From sequence record KM606994: a DNA stretch of 64,000 nucleotides; one strand, 5' to 3'. The translations under genes and the position numbers were made by a program. Below the pieces are notes generated by a model. It ran no database searches. It worked only from the letters and a program-made list of their open reading frames with translations, and was not told the DNA's origin. Within the stretch, counting starts at the first letter, position 1; every line of letters begins with the position of its first letter. The DNA comes from Escherichia phage RB3. Below are positions 2,005 to 36,251 of this stretch, in pieces.

Positions 2005-3205
2005 ATTTTGTAATAATGTCAAACTGTTCTTTAAAGCAGAAGCTTGAATCTTGATGCTGATACAAAAATTCATATGCTTTTTCTCGCTCACGGTCATAAA
2101 GAGCTCGGTCAGATGACAGTTCTTTAATACGCTCGAATGTTGATTCCATGTCATTTTCATCAAACCAAATGATACCGCTATCATGCGAGGTCAAAGGAGT
2201 ATTATCAACACGGAATTTTAAATTATCACCCGTTGATTTCCAGAAAACAGGAATTGTACCGCAAGCACCTAATTCAAGATGAGTATATTCGAGTGAGCGT
2301 TGTAGATATTTTTTATCCAACTTACTCAACTGATAACCAAAACCGGATTTACTCATACGTTCAAGCATTTCGCTATTTACATAACGGTCAAGAATTTGCG
2401 TTGGCAAATTAGGAGCAATTTTAATTTGGTCTACTTGATGAAGACGATAATACTCGTATGGAATTCCTTTTTCTTTAATGGGAATGAACGCTGGAGAACG
2501 TTCCAGACCTTCCATAATAGTACTTAGTCCTGCAGGTTTAAGATGTTTTTCATGAAAATCAAACATCTGATAAAAACCTTTCCACGTAGTCGTACGACCA
2601 ATCCAACGGTTAATATTCATGTTAATTTCAGAAACATCTTTCCAGTAGGTTGACCGAACCTTCGCAATATCCATAGGAGGCTGAAAGTTATATACGGTCG
2701 GTGCTTCTTCAATATCATCAAACAGAGAAACTGTTTCAGGATACCATTCTTTCATCAGAACTTTATTAAAATCGCCATTATCAGAATGACTAAAAATAAC
2801 ATCAGCTCGACGAACAGTTTCTTCTAATCCCAAATTTCGACGCAAAGAAAGAGAAGAATGGTCATGTTGATAAACTACAACACGAACCGAAGGTTTAATG
2901 TTATCAATAATTTTTTTATAGTTATTAATTGTGTCTTCTTCGACTGAAGTAGCAGGAACTGAATTGATAATTAGAATATCACAATCATTTACCAGCTTAA
3001 GTGTTTTATCGTATTCTTTTGCCAATAAAACCGGAATTGAAAATGATTTATAATCATGCGCGCAGTTACGAGTAAATGATTTATCTTTAGCATAAACCAA
3101 AGTTACTTCATGACCATTTTTAATAAACCAATCACGCTGCTCAAGAGAAAATTTAGTTACACCGCAACCTTCAAGACCTCGAGCCATAAAAATACATACT
3201 TTCAT
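2003..3205 (-). CDS. a-gt: DNA alpha-glucosyltransferase
   Basis: 400 aa; near full-length match to my memory of T4 alpha-glucosyltransferase (MKVCIFMARGLEGCGVTKFSLEQRDWFIKNGHEVTLVYAKDK...). Confidence 0.9.
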   Translation of the reverse strand: MKVCIFMARGLEGCGVTKFSLEQRDWFIKNGHEVTLVYAKDKSFTRNCAHDYKSFSIPVLLAKEYDKTLKLVNDCDILIINSVPATSVEEDTINNYKKIIDNIKPSVRVVVYQHDHSSLSLRRNLGLEETVRRADVIFSHSDNGDFNKVLMKEWYPETVSLFDDIEEAPTVYNFQPPMDIAKVRSTYWKDVSEINMNINRWIGRTTTWKGFYQMFDFHEKHLKPAGLSTIMEGLERSPAFIPIKEKGIPYEYYRLHQVDQIKIAPNLPTQILDRYVNSEMLERMSKSGFGYQLSKLDKKYLQRSLEYTHLELGACGTIPVFWKSTGDNLKFRVDNTPLTSHDSGIIWFDENDMESTFERIKELSSDRALYDREREKAYEFLYQHQDSSFCFKEQFDIITK

Positions 3206-3255
3206 TTAATATCCTCATTGTTTTGGTTTATTTTACCAAAAATTTATAAAGCAAT

Positions 3256-3275
3256 ATAGGAGCCGAAGCTCCTAT
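3256..3275 (-). promoter_or_regulatory. Intercistronic UUCG hairpin upstream of a-gt
   Basis: Plus strand ataggagccgaagctcctat, an 8-bp stem with a cgaa/UUCG loop. Confidence 0.55.
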
Positions 3276-3448
3276 CCGCATAATACGCCATACAAAGGCT
3301 CGTTAGAGCTTCTAAATTTTATACGCTTATATGTTATAGTTCCTTCTGCTTTAGCTTTATCATGAGACTCTTTAAAGCGTCTCATCATTTCTACTTTAGA
3401 GGAACGAATTTTATTATAATCTATTTCAGAAGTCTGGGTGTTCATCTT

Positions 3449-6520: not shown

Positions 6521-6592
6521 AAAAATATTTTAGGGAATGATAAGAAAGGAACGATAGCTTAGAATGGTAATATACAGAATGTGAGAAAGAAA

Positions 6593-6606
6593 GGCCCAGA
6601 GGGCCC
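6593..6606 (-). promoter_or_regulatory. GC hairpin downstream of the glutaredoxin gene
   Basis: Plus strand ggcccagagggccc. Confidence 0.45.
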
Positions 6607-6609
6607 GTC

Positions 6610-6918
6610 TTAGTCTTCTATGATATCTCTATCATATCCAAGTGAAATGAGAGTTTCTTTGAAGTGTTTAATGTTCTTTTGTCTAGAATCATTAATGAAA
6701 ATGACTGGATAACGAATGTTAAGAGATGTGAATCCAGCGCGTTTAGCAAGAGATACAATCAGTGGACGATCATACTCAATCTTACCATTATTTGTAAGAA
6801 CTTTATAGAAAGTAAAAGGAGCATTGAGCTCCTTTAGAAGTTTTGTAACTGATTGACATCCAGGACAACGACCTACTTCATCTGGAATTCCATAGACTTC
6901 AATCTTATTTTGTTTCAC
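6610..6918 (-). CDS. nrdH: Glutaredoxin-like redoxin (NrdH-like)
   Basis: 102 aa with a CPGC redox motif near the N-terminus; sits in the nrd cluster. Confidence 0.6.
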   Translation of the reverse strand: MKQNKIEVYGIPDEVGRCPGCQSVTKLLKELNAPFTFYKVLTNNGKIEYDRPLIVSLAKRAGFTSLNIRYPVIFINDSRQKNIKHFKETLISLGYDRDIIED

Positions 6919-30349: not shown

Positions 30350-30823
30350 TTATTTGAACGATTTAACGTACTGAATAGAACCTTTACTATTCACGAAAGC
30401 GATTTTACCATTTTTATTATACATGGTAGCAGTACGCTGATAGCCATAAGTTTGCTTACCAGATTGATAACCAACTAATGCAAAATTATCTTCACCCATT
30501 TTATTCTGTTTAGCGCGAATGCGTTCATGACCATGCGCCATAAGAACCTTAGCATCACCAGTTGCAATGGATCGACGAGTTTTTTCATCTTCAACTGTAT
30601 TAACAAAGTCGTCAAATGAATCAAATTTAGCATGAGATTTATTATACAGTTTTCCATCTACTGCATAATTATATCCCTGTACATCCATCTCAACTTCTGT
30701 ACCATCATCCAGTACAGCAGTGATTTTCTGTCCTTTTTTAAATTTCAAAAGATCAGTAAAAGATTCAGCAATAATTTGAGAATTAATAGCTGCTTCAGTA
30801 ATAAATTCTTGATATGTTTTCAT
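30350..30823 (-). CDS. Internal protein (IPIII-like) with capsid-targeting N-terminus
   Basis: 157 aa; N-terminal MKTYQEFITE, the T4 internal-protein targeting/cleavage signature. Confidence 0.6.
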   Translation of the reverse strand: MKTYQEFITEAAINSQIIAESFTDLLKFKKGQKITAVLDDGTEVEMDVQGYNYAVDGKLYNKSHAKFDSFDDFVNTVEDEKTRRSIATGDAKVLMAHGHERIRAKQNKMGEDNFALVGYQSGKQTYGYQRTATMYNKNGKIAFVNSKGSIQYVKSFK

Positions 30824-30917: not shown

Positions 30918-31886
<969 letters not shown>

Positions 31887-31905
<19 letters not shown>

Positions 31906-32375
31906 TCAGTGATAAAGTTATTTAAATTTTGAGTATATTTCTTTTCATCAAAAATCTTTTGTTGTCTGCGTAGCCGCCATGGCATTTCAATGAACGTGTA
32001 CCATATCCCAGATAATATTGCTGCTGTAAAAATATTAACAAGTATGGTTAAAAGAATCCAATCTCCTATTCTGTCTATTGGATTTTTTATAAAAAAGTAA
32101 AATACGAATGATGTCACAGGAAGACTAATAATATACCACAGAATCATAATTTTATCTGTGAACCAATCAGCGTTCGTTAACTTAGCGCGACCATTATGAA
32201 TACACACGAATTTATCATCTGTTATAATAGATGGCTTAGCTGCTTGATATCCCATTCTAAACTCCCTAATCAACAAATTTTTCATATCTTCGGAACAACC
32301 ATTCCAGTCAACTCTATCAACTGAAATGCCATCATCCCCATCATCTAAATCATACCAGCGAGTTTTTAAAATCAT
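31887..32375 (-). CDS. Membrane protein, paralog 1 of a three-gene family
   Basis: 162 aa; two hydrophobic helices; C-terminal tail ...FITECRKLK. Confidence 0.55.
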
Positions 32376-32734
32376 TTAATTTTCCTACAATCACTCACAA
32401 ACTCTTCCATTGATTCTTTTTCAATATAAGACATGTAGCTATTATATTCTTTTAATTGTATTTTGTAATCTTTTTTTCTTTGCCAATTTATTTTAAAATT
32501 ATCATAATGAAAATATAACATGGTACCAAAGAATGAAAATAATGAAATAATTTTAGTATAGTGAAGTTCACTCCAAACTTCTATTATATTTACTGTGCCG
32601 TCAATGTTTAAAATAAGACAGTCAATTAACAATCCAAAAAGACTACCCGCAAGAGCTGCAGCCAACGCCACAGCAAAAATTAAAAATGACTCAGGAAGCG
32701 AATATTTGACTTTATTTAGTTTTGGCTTTTGCAT
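32372..32734 (-). CDS. Membrane protein, paralog 2
   Basis: 120 aa; hydrophobic helices; C-terminal tail ...FVSDCRKIK. Confidence 0.55.
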   Translation of the reverse strand: MQKPKLNKVKYSLPESFLIFAVALAAALAGSLFGLLIDCLILNIDGTVNIIEVWSELHYTKIISLFSFFGTMLYFHYDNFKINWQRKKDYKIQLKEYNSYMSYIEKESMEEFVSDCRKIK

Positions 32735-33108
32735 CGTGATTCCTTAACAAATTTCATAATTTCATCAAATTCATACGCAGCAAGTTTAAGCTGATGTTCC
32801 TTTTTAATCTTTTTACACTGTGCTTTCCAATCACGTACGCGTTTACGATAATGCCTTCCTTGATACCAGTATCCTACCCAATTTACAGGTACTAATAAAA
32901 ATGGAACTATCATTGGAAGAATTAGTGTTGACGCAAATATTATATTAGATTCAATATTAGTCATAACATCTATAACTATTCCAACCCCCAGTAGAATTAC
33001 AAATGATACAGCTATTACAGGACCTATTAATACATCAGTAGAAATTATCTGACGCTTTAATTCATACTTTAAGGGTTTACTTGGAAGATACATTGATGGC
33101 TTTGACAT
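32716..33108 (-). CDS. Membrane protein, paralog 3
   Basis: 130 aa; hydrophobic helices; C-terminal tail ...FVKESRCKSQN. Confidence 0.55.
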   Translation of the reverse strand: MSKPSMYLPSKPLKYELKRQIISTDVLIGPVIAVSFVILLGVGIVIDVMTNIESNIIFASTLILPMIVPFLLVPVNWVGYWYQGRHYRKRVRDWKAQCKKIKKEHQLKLAAYEFDEIMKFVKESRCKSQN

Positions 33109-33685
33109 ATTCTCTGCATTCCTTCACAAATTTTTCTAGTAATAAATCGCTTTCAAAATTGGGATTTTCTACGAATTTATCAAAAAGATCATCAACAATA
33201 GTTAAGATATTCTTTTTACTAAGAATACGTTTATTTTCATGCTTCGTTTCAGAATCAACTATAAGAGTAAAGAAATATTTCTTTCCCTGAAATTTTACCG
33301 TAGTATCAATATAGAATAAATTTGACTTTTGTAAGTTACGTTTAAACCATGCGTCACTTAAACTATAAACGCCAAGATAATCATAATCGTCGTTTAAATA
33401 ACAAACTGTCCATTCAGGAGAAATGAAATCAGTAAATTCAACATCAAAATCACACGTCAATGAATGAATTGATTCAATACTGTTAATAAGTATTCCAGGA
33501 CGTATTAAAGACTTTTTACCTCTGGAAAATCTTCCAGAAAGACTTTCATCAGTTTCATATGAAGAACCCCAATAATAATTACGTCCTTCTGCCATACGTT
33601 TAAGAGCATGTAGTAATTGGTCTGGAACATCAACCTGTCTTTGGAACTCTTCAAACATTGAATTGAAATCACTTTGCATTTTCAT
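33077..33685 (-). CDS. Hypothetical protein
   Basis: 202-aa ORF. Confidence 0.5.
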   Translation of the reverse strand: MKMQSDFNSMFEEFQRQVDVPDQLLHALKRMAEGRNYYWGSSYETDESLSGRFSRGKKSLIRPGILINSIESIHSLTCDFDVEFTDFISPEWTVCYLNDDYDYLGVYSLSDAWFKRNLQKSNLFYIDTTVKFQGKKYFFTLIVDSETKHENKRILSKKNILTIVDDLFDKFVENPNFESDLLLEKFVKECREYVKAINVSSK

Positions 33686-33716
33686 TCCTATTTACTCCAA
33701 GTAATAGGGGCCGAAG

Positions 33717-33730
33717 CCCCTTATCATTAT
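33717..33730 (-). promoter_or_regulatory. Intercistronic C(UUCG)G hairpin
   Basis: Plus strand ggggccgaagcccc. Confidence 0.55.
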
Positions 33731-34320
33731 TTCAGAGAATTAATGTATTCCTGAACATCGGCAGAAGTAGTTTCAACCCCAGAAATATTACCATTAAAGG
33801 TTTCAACTCGAGCAAGAGTATCTTCAATATCAACCTTAGTCAGCGCTGCAATTTCAACTACATCATCGGCAGTACTAATTCCAAGTGCATTCGCTGCTCG
33901 AGTTTCACGGATATATTCCAATTTAACTGCAAGTTCTTGGCGAGCATCATCCAATTCAACTACTTTCTTGGCGATTTCAATTCGCATTTCAGCATACCCA
34001 TCAGCTTTAGTAGTTAACTGTTCAGCTGTTCGACGATATAGCAAGCCGAGTTTAGCATGCATTGTTACATCTTGACCTTCGGAAAGAAGCTTGCGAATTT
34101 CACGCTCTTTTGATTCGGCTTGCCGATTCTTTTCAACAATAAGTTCACGAATACGTTTTTCTTCATTAATAGATTTAATAGAAGCAGTTTTTAGATCTTT
34201 AATTTTATCAAGCAGTTTTGCTGCTGCGGCAGTATACTGTTCTTCAACAGATAGATTTTTAGCCATAGCAGAACCAAGTTTAGTGCGAATAAACTCAACA
34301 ATTTTCTTCAGTGTGTTCAT
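33727..34320 (-). CDS. PspA/IM30-like coiled-coil protein
   Basis: 197 aa, predicted almost entirely helical; overall pattern resembles the phage-shock protein A family (from memory, no search). Confidence 0.4.
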
Positions 34321-35423: not shown

Positions 35424-35499
35424 TGGTCGAGGCAGTAGGGATCGAACCTACGACCCAGGACTTAGAAGGTCCTTGCTCTTCCTTCTGAGCTATGCCTCG
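35424..35499 (-). tRNA. tRNA-Arg (anticodon UCU)
   Basis: Hand-folded cloverleaf; anticodon loop CUUCUAA; CCA encoded. Confidence 0.8.
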
Positions 35500-35503
35500 T
35501 ATT

Positions 35504-35578
35504 TGGCGGACGTGATAGGATTCGAACCTATAACCAATCGCTTAACAGGCGATCGCTCTGCCATTGAGCTACACATCC
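35504..35578 (-). tRNA. tRNA-Asn (anticodon GUU)
   Basis: Hand-folded cloverleaf; anticodon loop CUGUUAA; CCA encoded. Confidence 0.7.
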
Positions 35579-35582
35579 AAAT

Positions 35583-35669
35583 TGGTGGGGAGTGATGGAG
35601 TCGAACCACCCGAGTCGCAATGACAATGGATTTACAGTCCACACCGCTACCTCTACGGGATAACTCCCC
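35583..35669 (-). tRNA. tRNA-Tyr (anticodon GUA), long variable arm
   Basis: 87 nt; anticodon loop CUGUAAA; T-arm GGTGG-TTCGACT-CCATC; CCA encoded. Confidence 0.65.
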
Positions 35670-35678
35670 TAATTAATT

Positions 35679-35753
35679 TGGTGGCCCTGGGTGGAATTGA
35701 ACCACCATCTGGCGATTATGAGTCGCTTGCTTGAACCTTCCAGCTACAGGGCC
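35679..35753 (-). tRNA. tRNA with CAU anticodon (Met or Ile2)
   Basis: Anticodon loop CUCAUAA; acceptor GGCCCTG/CAGGGCC; CCA encoded. Confidence 0.65.
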
Positions 35754-35754
35754 T

Positions 35755-35830
35755 TGGCGCTGATTGACGGAATCGAACCGCCGACATCCTCATTACAAGT
35801 GAGGTGCTCTACCTACTGAGCTAAATCAGC
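35755..35830 (-). tRNA. tRNA-Thr (anticodon UGU)
   Basis: Anticodon loop CUUGUAA; CCA encoded. Confidence 0.8.
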
Positions 35831-35835
35831 AAAAC

Positions 35836-35925
35836 TGGCGGAGGCGATAGGATTTGAACCTATGAGTCGCCGGAGCGACTGCCGGTTTTCAAGACCGGTG
35901 CATTAAACCACTCTGCCACGCCTCC
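35836..35925 (-). tRNA. tRNA-Ser (anticodon UGA), long variable arm
   Basis: 90 nt; anticodon loop CUUGAAA; CCA encoded. Confidence 0.8.
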
Positions 35926-35927
35926 AG

Positions 35928-36001
35928 TCTCCATACAAGGATTTGAACCTTGGACCTCCTGATCCCAAATCAGGCGCTCTACCAAACTGAGCTACACGGA
36001 G
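35928..36001 (-). tRNA. tRNA-Pro (anticodon UGG)
   Basis: Anticodon loop UUUGGGA; CCA not encoded. Confidence 0.75.
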
Positions 36002-36011
36002 TAAATTAAAT

Positions 36012-36085
<74 letters not shown>

Positions 36086-36090
36086 AAATT

Positions 36091-36177
36091 TGGTGCGAGA
36101 AGTGGGACTCGAACCCACAAGGAAATCATTCCGCAGCATTTTAAGTGCTGTGCCTTTACCAATTTGACCATTCTCGC
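36091..36177 (-). tRNA. tRNA-Leu (anticodon UAA), long variable arm
   Basis: 87 nt; anticodon loop CUUAAAA; CCA encoded. Confidence 0.8.
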
Positions 36178-36179
36178 GC

Positions 36180-36251
36180 TGGGAATAAAGGACTCGAACC
36201 TTTGCATCCTGGAATCAAAATCCAGTGCCTTACCAACTTGGCTAATTCCCA
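36180..36251 (-). tRNA. tRNA-Gln (anticodon UUG)
   Basis: Anticodon loop UUUUGAU; CCA not encoded. Confidence 0.75.

Follow-up and report, generated by a model that had tools for sequence, protein, structure and literature searches.

Among large lytic phages, bacteriophage T4 has been studied most closely, and a function is lacking for about half of its genes, e.2-e.5 included. Superinfection exclusion by T4 is genetically explained by imm and sp. Like the products of the genes e.2, e.3 and e.4, the subject of this analysis, Imm (83 aa, two transmembrane (TM) helices) is small and accessory, is located in the inner membrane and is made early by this phage. However, Imm has neither a long cytoplasmic tail nor the F-I-x-x-C-R motif described below, and the hhalign probability for Imm vs e.2-e.4 does not exceed 1.4%. 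The Psp system of Escherichia coli (PspA, PspB, PspC) can be compared by analogy only: in the phage locus, a gene for a hairpin protein, e.6, is followed by genes for small membrane proteins with cytoplasmic domains. The immunity proteins of the Bfi1 family (NF053699) are small inner-membrane proteins as well, and their TM helices determine specificity against membrane-acting toxins. The ip loci of T-even phages, located in the same region, are likewise polymorphic and accessory, and their products have a short conserved peptide at one end in common, the capsid-targeting sequence MKTYQEFI(A/T)E; this peptide is N-terminal, and its final Glu is the prohead protease cleavage point.

The T4 proteins e.2/e.3/e.4/e.5 (UniProt Y06M/Y06N/Y06O/Y06P) are near-identical orthologues of those analyzed here and share with them the annotation 'conserved hypothetical, predicted membrane protein'. 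In the databases, e.2-e.5 are kept as separate, unrelated families without a function (PF26896, PF26873 and PF26876; PHROGs 2203, 2330, 2604 and 2607), with no Pfam family for e.3, and no functional statement on e.2-e.5 was found in the literature, including CRISPRi-ART, HIDEN-SEQ and accessory-gene screens. Neither the relationship among these proteins nor the C-terminal motif they share is recorded in the databases; the three database 'orphans' appear to form one diverged family, to which e.2 is linked only in part.

The window, that is, the entire analyzed stretch of 64,000 nucleotides from Escherichia phage RB3 (KM606994), is 100% identical to phages RB5, RB6, RB7, RB9 and RB10. Profile matches and annotations identify three consecutive ORFs on the minus strand as the T4 genes e.2, e.3 and e.4 of a Tequatrovirus-type phage: e.2 (31887..32375, 162 aa; phrog_2203, E 1e-78, residues 1-160), e.3 (32372..32734, 120 aa; phrog_2330, E 2e-60, residues 1-118) and e.4 (32716..33108, 130 aa; phrog_2604, E 2e-69, residues 1-130), with the names of e.2-e.6 taken from the RB14 and T4 annotations. 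The ORF lengths and coordinates given in the initial annotation are thus exact, and so is the translational coupling it proposed: e.3 and e.2, like e.2 and nudE, overlap in ATGA, and e.4 and e.3 overlap by 19 nt. In contrast, the genes had been placed downstream of the lysozyme gene e and nudE, whereas by the direction of transcription they lie upstream of both; the Nudix hydrolase gene nudE (31450..31890, minus strand) is coupled to e.2 through ATGA at 31887-31890. On the other side, the minus-strand gene e.5 (33077..33685), encoding a soluble protein of 202 aa without a TM helix, overlaps the e.4 start with its stop (a 32-nt overlap), and is itself preceded by e.6 (33727..34320, minus strand, 197 aa). 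A G+C-rich hairpin with a UUCG loop (AGGGGC-UUCG-GCCCCU; 33706..33721, minus strand) separates e.6 from e.5; in the record of phage ATK48 this hairpin is annotated as a terminator.

Orthologues of e.2-e.5 in Tequatrovirus show 80-100% identity and retain the gene order, and the order e.6, e.5, two-TM proteins is conserved across six genera. In the VR7 locus (18.5 kb examined), neither e.5 nor e.6 is annotated beside e.4/e.3, so that e.5 is perhaps not an obligate partner there. A profile search with e.2 also detected orthologues in other genera; all e.2 homologues carry the Pfam domain PF26896 (Phage_T4_Y06M), and the distant ones conserve the pattern W..LDDG..GI..VDW..C together with the ending FIKxCRK. 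The family match list includes 45 homologues named e.3, and PF26873 (Phage_T4_Y06O) is found in 98 of the 98 e.4 homologues.

Tandem paralogy of the three genes had been proposed on the basis of their related tails, and formal alignment supports it unevenly. Pairwise BLASTP among e.2, e.3 and e.4 finds no more than short matches in the tails or N-termini (E 0.006-0.1), and hhalign with alignments restricted to Tequatrovirus (Neff about 1.2) gives probabilities below 8%; given that neither single-sequence searches nor such shallow profiles reach significance, multi-genus profiles were needed. With these, e.3 and e.4 align over their full length (94.8%, P 5.5e-8, 117 colinear columns), a score that was not reached by any of the 100 segment-preserving shuffles (z 6.3). 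For e.2 and e.3, the probability is 83.6% and the alignment is limited to the last 19 residues; the RB69 protein ORF133c aligns with e.2 over TM1, TM2 and the tail (92.3%) and with e.3 at 76.7%. In the shuffle controls, none of the 100 reached the observed scores (z 6.3-10.5), and reversed templates stayed below 1%. The direct comparison of e.2 with e.4 is not significant (4.4%), the three families stay unmerged in jackhmmer searches, and comparisons of e.2-e.4 with Imm, Ac, T and pseT.3, which are small T4 membrane proteins as well, score at most 1.4%. Thus, on profile evidence, the proposal that e.3 and e.4 are tandem duplicates is well supported, and the assignment of e.2 to the same group, through TM2, the tail and ORF133c, is partly supported; in principle, the short e.2 tail could derive from recombination at gene junctions instead of common descent.

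The members of the group share a predicted topology along with the C-terminal motif. Kyte-Doolittle hydropathy reveals two hydrophobic helices in each protein and no third, so of the 'two or three' initially proposed the lower figure holds throughout. Both helices are above the threshold in e.2 and e.4, and the second helix of e.3 falls below it in RB5 and is clear in the orthologues. The basic N-termini and basic tails predict an N-in/C-in orientation for all three proteins, a topology based on hydropathy and charge only, and the predicted periplasmic loops consist of only about 6-18 residues. In e.2, a cytoplasmic N-domain of ~75 aa precedes the TM helices (~78-96 and ~106-129) and the tail; the AlphaFold2 model (pLDDT 51) leaves this N-domain unresolved and renders TM2 and the tail, at low confidence, as a single continuous helix. 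The e.3 protein has a basic N-terminus (MQKPKLNKVK), and an acidic loop connects its TM1 (17-42) with a weaker TM2 (61-77); its tail ends in ...SMEEFVSDCRKIK. In e.4, the N-terminus is MSKPSMYLPSKPLKYELKRQ, and TM1 (27-49) is separated by a short loop from TM2 (56-76); between TM2 and the tail (...IMKFVKESRCKSQN) lies a juxtamembrane stretch of aromatic and basic character.

Alignment of the C-termini confirms the related basic tails and resolves them into a common ending, Φ-x-x-F-[IV]-x-[ED]-[CS]-R, in all three proteins. The soluble e.5 carries the same motif at its C-terminus (...LLLEKFVKECREYVKAINVSSK); this fourth tail bearer was absent from the initial annotation. Translation of the whole window in all six frames yields five occurrences of the pattern F[IV]x[ED][CS]R, four of which fall at the C-termini of four consecutive genes, vs 0.02 expected by chance. 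An HMM of the 12-residue tail had no match beyond e.2-e.5 among the 816 ORFs of the complete RB5 genome. Altogether, the motif is present in 25 proteins from Tequatro-, Mosig-, Gapriver-, Dhaka-, Kanagawa-, Jiaoda- and Moonvirus and from metagenomes, including the e.5 orthologues of Mosigvirus, Dhakavirus, Kanagawavirus, Jiaodavirus and Moonvirus and a few other proteins encoded at the same locus in other genera. A strongly selected cytoplasmic peptide of 10 residues is thus common to these membrane proteins and their soluble neighbour in at least seven genera of Tevenvirinae.

The motif always lies over the translation-initiation region of the next gene, and its codons double as the ribosome-binding site of that overlapping gene. 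In e.5, the motif codons F186-R191 (TTT GTG AAG GAA TGC AGA; 33113..33130, minus strand) are located directly upstream of the e.4 ATG. Within the e.4 motif codons F120-R125 (TTT GTT AAG GAA TCA CGA; 32734..32751, minus strand), AAGGAA provides e.3 with its Shine-Dalgarno sequence, and the Arg-Cys codons are overlapped by the e.3 ATG. At the e.3 motif codons F112-R117 (TTT GTG AGT GAT TGT AGG; 32384..32401, minus strand), TAGGAAAA serves as the Shine-Dalgarno sequence for e.2, and the e.2 motif codons F154-R159 (TTT ATC ACT GAA TGC AGG; 31899..31916, minus strand) are followed by AGGAAA, that for nudE. At the DNA level, the e.5/e.4 junction resembles the e.4/e.3 junction (AAATTTGTNAAGGAAT...ATGNNAAAGCC). 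Given the placement of the motif, the Shine-Dalgarno sequence may have influenced its middle residues (KE, KG, EE), and a selected peptide motif that overlaps the ribosome-binding site of the next gene makes a neat case of dual coding.

Selection along these proteins is uneven. In samples of 5-7 sequences, purifying selection acts on the tails (dN/dS 0.07-0.17); the final 12 codons of e.2 have dN = 0 and dS = 0.19, and the final 12 codons of e.4, where the gene overlaps e.3, have dS = 0. The TM1-loop-TM2 segment of e.4 (32881..33030, minus strand) is a hypervariable mosaic cassette, with dN/dS of 0.76, 0.67 and 1.36, so that the hairpin evolves at dN/dS 0.7-1.4 vs 0.15-0.2 in the cytoplasmic parts. 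DNA identity to other Tequatrovirus drops to 47-76% in bins 33056-32925, vs 91-100% in the flanks, these troughs are sharply bounded, and at least four allelic classes are present in the family alignment (e.g. P0132). The corresponding segment of e.3 (32504..32686, minus strand) varies to a moderate degree: its loop contains a 4-aa indel, and identity is 69-71% in bin 32699-32655. The description of the module as diversifying therefore applies to the e.4 hairpin, whereas the signal is weaker in e.3 and e.2. High dN/dS in a membrane anchor can also result from relaxed constraint, and it is the cytoplasmic tail, rather than the loop facing the envelope, that is most strongly constrained.

These genes are dispensable, as indicated by the truncation of e.2 to 102 aa in T4, its absence from T2 and the natural hybrids of e.4 and e.2. 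The in-frame hybrids, e.4(1-31)::e.2(88-162), are found in five genomes of 165 kb and arose via TCCTGT microhomology; furthermore, e.2 is absent from RB32 and e.3 from phiE142. During T4 infection, early RNA was detected for all these genes, and the proteins were detected as well (PMC9697503 supplement). No late-promoter boxes were found upstream of e.2-e.6; gene e has two of its own (TATAAATA; 31426..31446, minus strand), which serve gene e only.

Taken together, these observations lead us to lean, if only slightly, towards a role of e.2-e.4 as accessory membrane anchors in which a variable intramembrane part is combined with a conserved cytoplasmic docking peptide, and which act in conflict. 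Under this scenario, these early and dispensable accessory genes of T-even phages encode inner-membrane proteins of helical-hairpin form, predicted to have both termini in the cytoplasm, and e.2 would have gained the additional N-domain. The part under constraint, presumably also the functional one, is cytoplasmic and comprises the short basic N-terminus, the aromatic/basic juxtamembrane stretch and the C-terminal amphipathic peptide Φ-x-x-F-[IV]-K/x-E/x-C-R-K. The hairpins might anchor this peptide to the inner membrane and let it dock one common cytoplasmic partner, be it a host protein, a phage protein or the paralogues themselves, and the rapidly exchanged TM hairpin, above all that of e.4, would determine which variant of a membrane-embedded counterpart is recognised. 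If so, the inner membrane would be the site at which the module takes part in conflict between phage and host or between phages, and lysis would not be its role.

Superinfection exclusion and defence evasion, two of the roles initially suggested for this locus, are both possible for e.2-e.4. The more specific reading, in which the hairpin and periplasmic loop block superinfecting phages in the manner of Imm and Sp and the tail is structural only, appears rather unlikely to us. It would fit early, small, two-TM inner-membrane proteins that are accessory and often lost, and in which indels and allelic cassettes make the TM/loop region hypervariable. However, the periplasmic loops are very short, the strongest purifying selection is borne by the cytoplasmic parts, the tail is also present on the soluble e.5, and no similarity to Imm or Sp was found (hhalign at most 1.4%). 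The third initial suggestion, lysis timing, is unlikely, and its explicit form, holin- or antiholin-like factors acting with the neighbouring lysozyme e, is barely credible: gene e is indeed only 0.5-2 kb away and the proteins are small, membrane-located and charged in their C-terminal tails, but their RNA is early in T4 (PMC9697503 supplement), the late promoters of e have no counterpart upstream of e.2-e.6, no similarity to the T holin, RIII or pseT.3 was found (hhalign for T and RIII at most 0.4%), and the holin gene t and the antiholin gene rIII sit elsewhere in the genome.

The shared tail could also be read, without requiring homology of the proteins, as a nucleotide-level signal for initiation or coupling, or as a recombination junction that was copied from one gene boundary to another. 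For the majority of members, the ATG of the following gene comes 1-10 nt past the Arg codon, and AAGGAA, GAGGAA, AAAGGA or AGGAAA, in or just after the motif, are the sole Shine-Dalgarno candidates; the resemblance of the e.5/e.4 and e.4/e.3 junctions and the presence of a Mosigvirus seven-gene insert flanked by two motif-coding copies are compatible with this reading as well. Yet, across genera, the invariant F, I/V, C and R are written with a mixture of synonymous codons (F TTT/TTC, C TGT/TGC, R AGA/AGG/CGA/CGT/CGC), T-rich Phe/Ile codons and TGY are not Shine-Dalgarno elements, and the e.2 tail accumulates synonymous changes only. Furthermore, an IME08 e.5-like protein and PEi26 e.5 keep the motif with the next start 25-40 nt off, and the homology of e.3 and e.4 extends over the full length, beyond the junction, so that we consider an exclusively nucleotide-level explanation improbable. 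Similarly low is the credence we give to a Psp-like system for membrane maintenance or remodelling formed by e.6-e.5-e.4-e.3-e.2, in which e.6 would be a PspA/Vipp1 (ESCRT-III-fold) protein recruited, as by PspB/PspC, through the tails of the hairpin proteins. The AlphaFold2 model of e.6 (pLDDT 75) is a long helical hairpin with a third helix, its ten best Foldseek matches in the PDB are all full-length matches to the Vipp1/PspA family (E 3e-4 to 2e-2), a BFVD match links it to a phage PspA/IM30 protein (E 0.04), and the order of e.6, e.5 and the two-TM genes is retained in six genera; no match to the Pfam PspB or PspC domain was found in e.2-e.4 at E <= 1. The extension of this reading, with the F-I-K-E-C-R-K tail of the hairpin proteins recruiting or regulating e.6 at the membrane, e.5 as a soluble adaptor and the hypervariable hairpins sensing or neutralising variable membrane-damaging effectors of the host or of rival phages, likewise strikes us as a long shot. 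Taken together, the family relationship, the shared peptide and the exchangeable hypervariable hairpin of e.4 provide a concrete and experimentally accessible hypothesis for what had been four anonymous ORFs. If the variable hairpin does recognise host membrane effectors or rival phages, these proteins would represent a new class of intramembrane conflict determinant; otherwise, e.2-e.5 would be ordinary accessory genes.

Several further candidate relationships were rejected. Searches of the Pfam, NCBIfam and PADLOC libraries returned nothing above threshold, PADLOC models had no match to e.2-e.5 at E <= 0.1, and a PDB sequence search with e.2, e.5 and e.6 yielded no match. The e.4 protein matches NF053699 over TM1, TM2 and the juxtamembrane region (E 0.0016), but at 18.4 bits, far below the cut-off of 100, and the Bfi1 family has no conserved tail motif; the match probably reflects similar hydrophobic composition, and membership was dismissed. 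The rhodanese/sulfurtransferase name given by NCBI to some copies of e.3 and e.4 was discarded, given that no such domain was found in the Pfam and NCBIfam searches. The window also contains an ip-type gene with a capsid-targeting sequence (30350-30823, start MKTYQEFITEAA), and the 'EFITE' of that sequence resembles the 'NFITE' of e.2. Identification of the tail motif with a capsid-targeting sequence or gp21 cleavage site (I-x-E) was abandoned: many proteins with the e.2-e.5 motif have G, M or Q in place of the Glu and retain Cys-Arg, and e.2-e.4 are early membrane proteins. Eight weak repeat matches of the 2100-aa protein P0197 to e.2 residues 35-89 were judged to be a repeat artefact. In P0142 and P0205, the e.4 N-terminus or the e.2 tail is joined to unrelated N- or C-terminal sequence, and both are probable assembly chimeras; P0142 comes from a 703-nt contig and contains an HTH_11 (PF08279) domain.

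In the 3.5 kb around the small membrane-protein genes e.2, e.3 and e.4, identity is 100% to RB5, RB6, RB7, RB9 and RB10 and 93-98% to hundreds of further Tequatrovirus genomes, T4 and RB14 among them. On the basis of PHROG matches and the RB14/T4 annotation, the three genes were assigned as e.2 (31887-32375, minus strand, 162 aa; E 1e-78), e.3 (32372-32734, minus, 120 aa; E 2e-60) and e.4 (32716-33108, minus, 130 aa; E 2e-69). Given that transcription runs e.6 -> e.5 -> e.4 -> e.3 -> e.2 -> nudE -> e, they precede nudE and lysozyme, whereas the initial annotation placed them downstream. The overlapping, coupled ORFs described there are confirmed by the coordinates: e.3/e.2 and e.2/nudE each share an ATGA start/stop overlap (32372-32375 and 31887-31890), and the e.4/e.3 and e.5/e.4 overlaps span 19 and 32 nt, respectively. 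Between e.6 and e.5 lies a perfect, G+C-rich UUCG-loop hairpin (33706-33721), which is annotated as a terminator in ATK48; it may act in attenuation or stabilise mRNA, setting e.6 apart from the translationally coupled e.5-nudE block. The e.8-e.2 block is preceded by ten clustered tRNA genes (Arg, Asn, Tyr, Met/Ile-CAU, Thr, Ser, Pro, Gly, Leu and Gln; 35424-36251, minus), two more than in T4.

Related C-terminal tails had been noticed in the three proteins, and these are real. Translation of the 64-kb window in all six frames yields five matches to F[IV]x[ED][CS]R. Four of them, where 0.02 would be expected, belong to four successive genes and stand 3-11 residues short of the stop codon. The fourth bearer, overlooked previously, is e.5 (33077-33685, 202 aa), which has no hydrophobic helix; a 12-residue tail HMM found no further ORF in the complete RB5 genome. 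The consensus drawn from 25 proteins of seven genera and of metagenomes is Φ(-3)-[END]-x-F-[IV]-K-E-C-R-K, usually followed by 1-3 residues, with F and I/V invariant, C present in 21 and R in 23; in e.4, the Cys is shifted by two positions (…ESRCK, …EIRCK). The spacing of Φ, F, I and C (i, i+3, i+4, i+7) fits one face of a short amphipathic helix. All distant e.2 homologues (25-35% identity) end in FIK(E/G/M)CRK and retain the N-domain signature W..LDDG..GI..VDW..C..LI.EY.M..GYQP. In Klebsiella phage KP179, a 98-aa ORF left without annotation between two annotated genes (6575-6871 of its locus) ends in ...FNAWIRSCRK, matches the e.2 profile with E 0.001 and is probably an overlooked family member. 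The Ip4-like internal protein (30350-30823, minus) has an N-terminal capsid-targeting sequence, MKTYQEFITEAA, in which 'EFITE' resembles 'NFITE' of the e.2 tail; however, this Glu is not conserved across the e.2-e.5 motif, so a shared function is unlikely.

The motif always falls on the translation-initiation region of the following gene, with the next ATG 1-10 nt past the Arg codon in most tail bearers, and the sole Shine-Dalgarno-like (SD) sequences are within or just after it: AAGGAA (Lys-Glu), GAGGAA (Glu-Glu), AAAGGA (Lys-Gly) and AGGAAA (Arg-Lys). Hence dual use as an SD has probably shaped the two residues in the middle of the motif and its trailing Lys. That the entire tail could be accounted for at the nucleotide level is nevertheless improbable: genera differ in the synonymous codons that they use for the invariant residues (TTT/TTC; ATT/ATC/GTG/GTT/GTA; TGT/TGC; AGA/AGG/CGA/CGT/CGC), the last 12 codons of e.2 show dN = 0 and dS = 0.19 within Tequatrovirus, and two e.5 orthologues retain the motif despite the next start being 25-40 nt away. 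On these grounds, selection acts on the tail peptide itself.

In Kyte-Doolittle profiles, e.2 (about 78-96 and about 106-129) and e.4 (about 27-49 and about 56-76) each have two hydrophobic helices, and e.3 has a strong (17-42) and a weaker (61-77) one, the weaker being clearly hydrophobic in orthologues from Gaprivervirus and Dhakavirus; of the "two or three" helices proposed initially, two thus stand in each protein and a third does not. The N-termini and post-TM2 stretches are strongly basic and the loops short and acidic, so that, under the positive-inside rule, hydropathy and charge predict an N-in/C-in topology. An additional N-terminal domain of about 75 residues is present in e.2, the structure model of which is of poor quality.

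Paralogy is difficult to detect with single sequences: BLASTP among the three proteins is weak (E 0.006-0.1, short aligned stretches only), and profiles built from Tequatrovirus alone (Neff about 1.2) gave no significant match. Because word-indexed searches kept each family restricted to close relatives, orthologues were gathered from Mosigvirus, Gaprivervirus, Dhakavirus, Kanagawavirus, Jiaodavirus and Moonvirus together with metagenomic representatives. With these diverse profiles, hhalign aligned e.3 and e.4 over 117 colinear columns (residues 1-117 vs 1-125; probability 94.8%, P 5.5e-8), e.2 and the 101-aa two-TM Mosigvirus protein RB69 ORF133c across TM1-TM2-tail (92.3%), e.2 and e.3 over the last 19 residues only (83.6%), and e.3 and ORF133c (76.7%); e.2 and e.4 showed no significant similarity. 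When alignment columns were permuted only within each topological segment, so that composition and the hydrophobic pattern stayed the same, 0 of 100 permutations scored as high as the real alignments (z 6.3, 10.5 and 9.1), and reversed templates gave <1%. Against the same profiles, other small membrane proteins of T4 (Imm, Ac, T, pseT.3, gp40, Sp and RIII) scored <=1.4%. In jackhmmer at a large nominal database size, the families stay unmerged. The tandem paralogy proposed initially therefore holds along the full length for e.3 and e.4, which we read as true tandem duplicates, and only in part for e.2, whose place in the group, via TM2 and tail, is partly established.

Within e.4, variation is concentrated in the hairpin. 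By the Nei-Gojobori method (5-7 Tequatrovirus sequences), dN/dS is 0.07-0.17 for the three tails and, along e.4, 0.2 (N-terminus), 0.76 (TM1), 0.67 (loop) and 1.36 (TM2); a value of 1.5 for the e.2 loop comes from few sites. DNA identity to RB5 is 47-76% in the e.4 hairpin (bins 33056-32925) vs 91-100% in the flanks, with sharp bounds, and drops to 69-71% in e.3 TM1. In protein alignments, at least four alleles of the e.4 hairpin can be distinguished, and the loop of e.3 has a 4-residue indel. Because the e.4 divergence far exceeds the flanking synonymous level, it points to exchanged or long-maintained alleles, beyond mere relaxed constraint.

The genes are readily lost or rearranged. In T4, e.2 is shortened to 102 aa, without TM2 and tail (3128-3436 of its locus); e.2 is missing from T2 and RB32, and e.3 from phiE142. 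Five UFV05-type genomes of about 165 kb have e.3 deleted and carry an in-frame e.4(1-31)::e.2(88-162) hybrid (2501-2821 of that locus), whose junction is a TCCTGT microhomology within TM1. Two further fusions, P0142 (97 aa, 703-nt contig; e.4 N-terminus joined to unrelated sequence with an HTH_11/PF08279 domain) and P0205 (83 aa; e.2 tail joined to unrelated sequence), are probably assembly chimeras and conceivably real recombinants. The order e.6, e.5-like, two-TM motif proteins is retained in Tequatro-, Mosig-, Dhaka-, Kanagawa-, Jiaoda- and Moonvirus; Mosigvirus has seven genes inserted between e.3 and e.2, and the 18.5-kb locus of Gaprivervirus VR7 contains e.4, e.3 and e.2 with no e.5/e.6 annotated alongside. 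Directly downstream of e.3, Mosig-, Gapriver-, Dhaka-, Kanagawa- and Moonvirus encode a second tandem family, absent from the window, of 3-5 small soluble proteins each ending in (G)W(V/Y/Q)xSSxxC (L009 6290-7084; L018 5024-6283; L019 4843-5634; L017 4843-5917 and 6257-6454; L026 7066-7835).

In T4 time-course data, e.2-e.6 and nudE all belong to the early RNA class, and the proteins are detected early (e.4, e.5), in the middle period (e.2, e.6, nudE) or late (e.3) (PMC9697503, supplementary files 4 and 6). Late-promoter boxes (TATAAATA) in the vicinity are confined to two ahead of gene e. The e.2-e.4 products are early, dispensable hairpin inner-membrane proteins with conserved, predicted cytoplasmic ends; they have a C-terminal peptide in common with their soluble neighbour, and their membrane hairpin is hypervariable, above all in e.4. 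The hairpins would tether this peptide at the membrane, where it could dock a common cytoplasmic partner, and the variable hairpin might recognise a membrane-embedded counterpart that is variable too; the module would then serve in phage-host or phage-phage conflict. Imm-like exclusion, with the envelope side as the working part, appears unlikely. Still more doubtful is a Psp-like system involving e.6, a far more widely distributed gene found in 1105 phage records, among them Klebsiella and Aeromonas phages and RB43. The single-sequence AlphaFold2 model of e.6 (pLDDT 75) combines a long helical hairpin with a third helix; e.6 has no sequence similarity to PspA. A role of these early-class genes in lysis timing, also suggested initially, is highly improbable. 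We favor the tethered-peptide arrangement.

Annotation of the genes e.2-e.5 dates back to the completion of the T4 genome. They are split into separate function-less families in Pfam (Phage_T4_Y06M, Y06O, Y06P) and in PHROGs, and our literature search found no paper on them. What is new is the homology of e.3 with e.4, the motif that e.2-e.5 have in common in several genera, the way this motif overlaps the ribosome-binding sites of the genes downstream, and the cassette-like character of the e.4 hairpin, a modest advance on known hypothetical genes and not a new kind of system. The 2100-aa repeat protein P0197 has eight matches to residues 35-89 of e.2 (E 1.6e-14), produced by a repeated unit, ...GYTF.GW(F/Y)TDKELT..Y.FSLPVTGD..., and most likely a repeat-driven artefact. 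Given that no rhodanese or other sulfurtransferase domain is detectable in e.3/e.4, the NCBI name 'sulfurtransferase' on many copies (P0002, P0005, P0050, P0071 and others), mostly in Salmonella, Shigella and E. coli assemblies with phage contigs, looks like a propagated mis-annotation.
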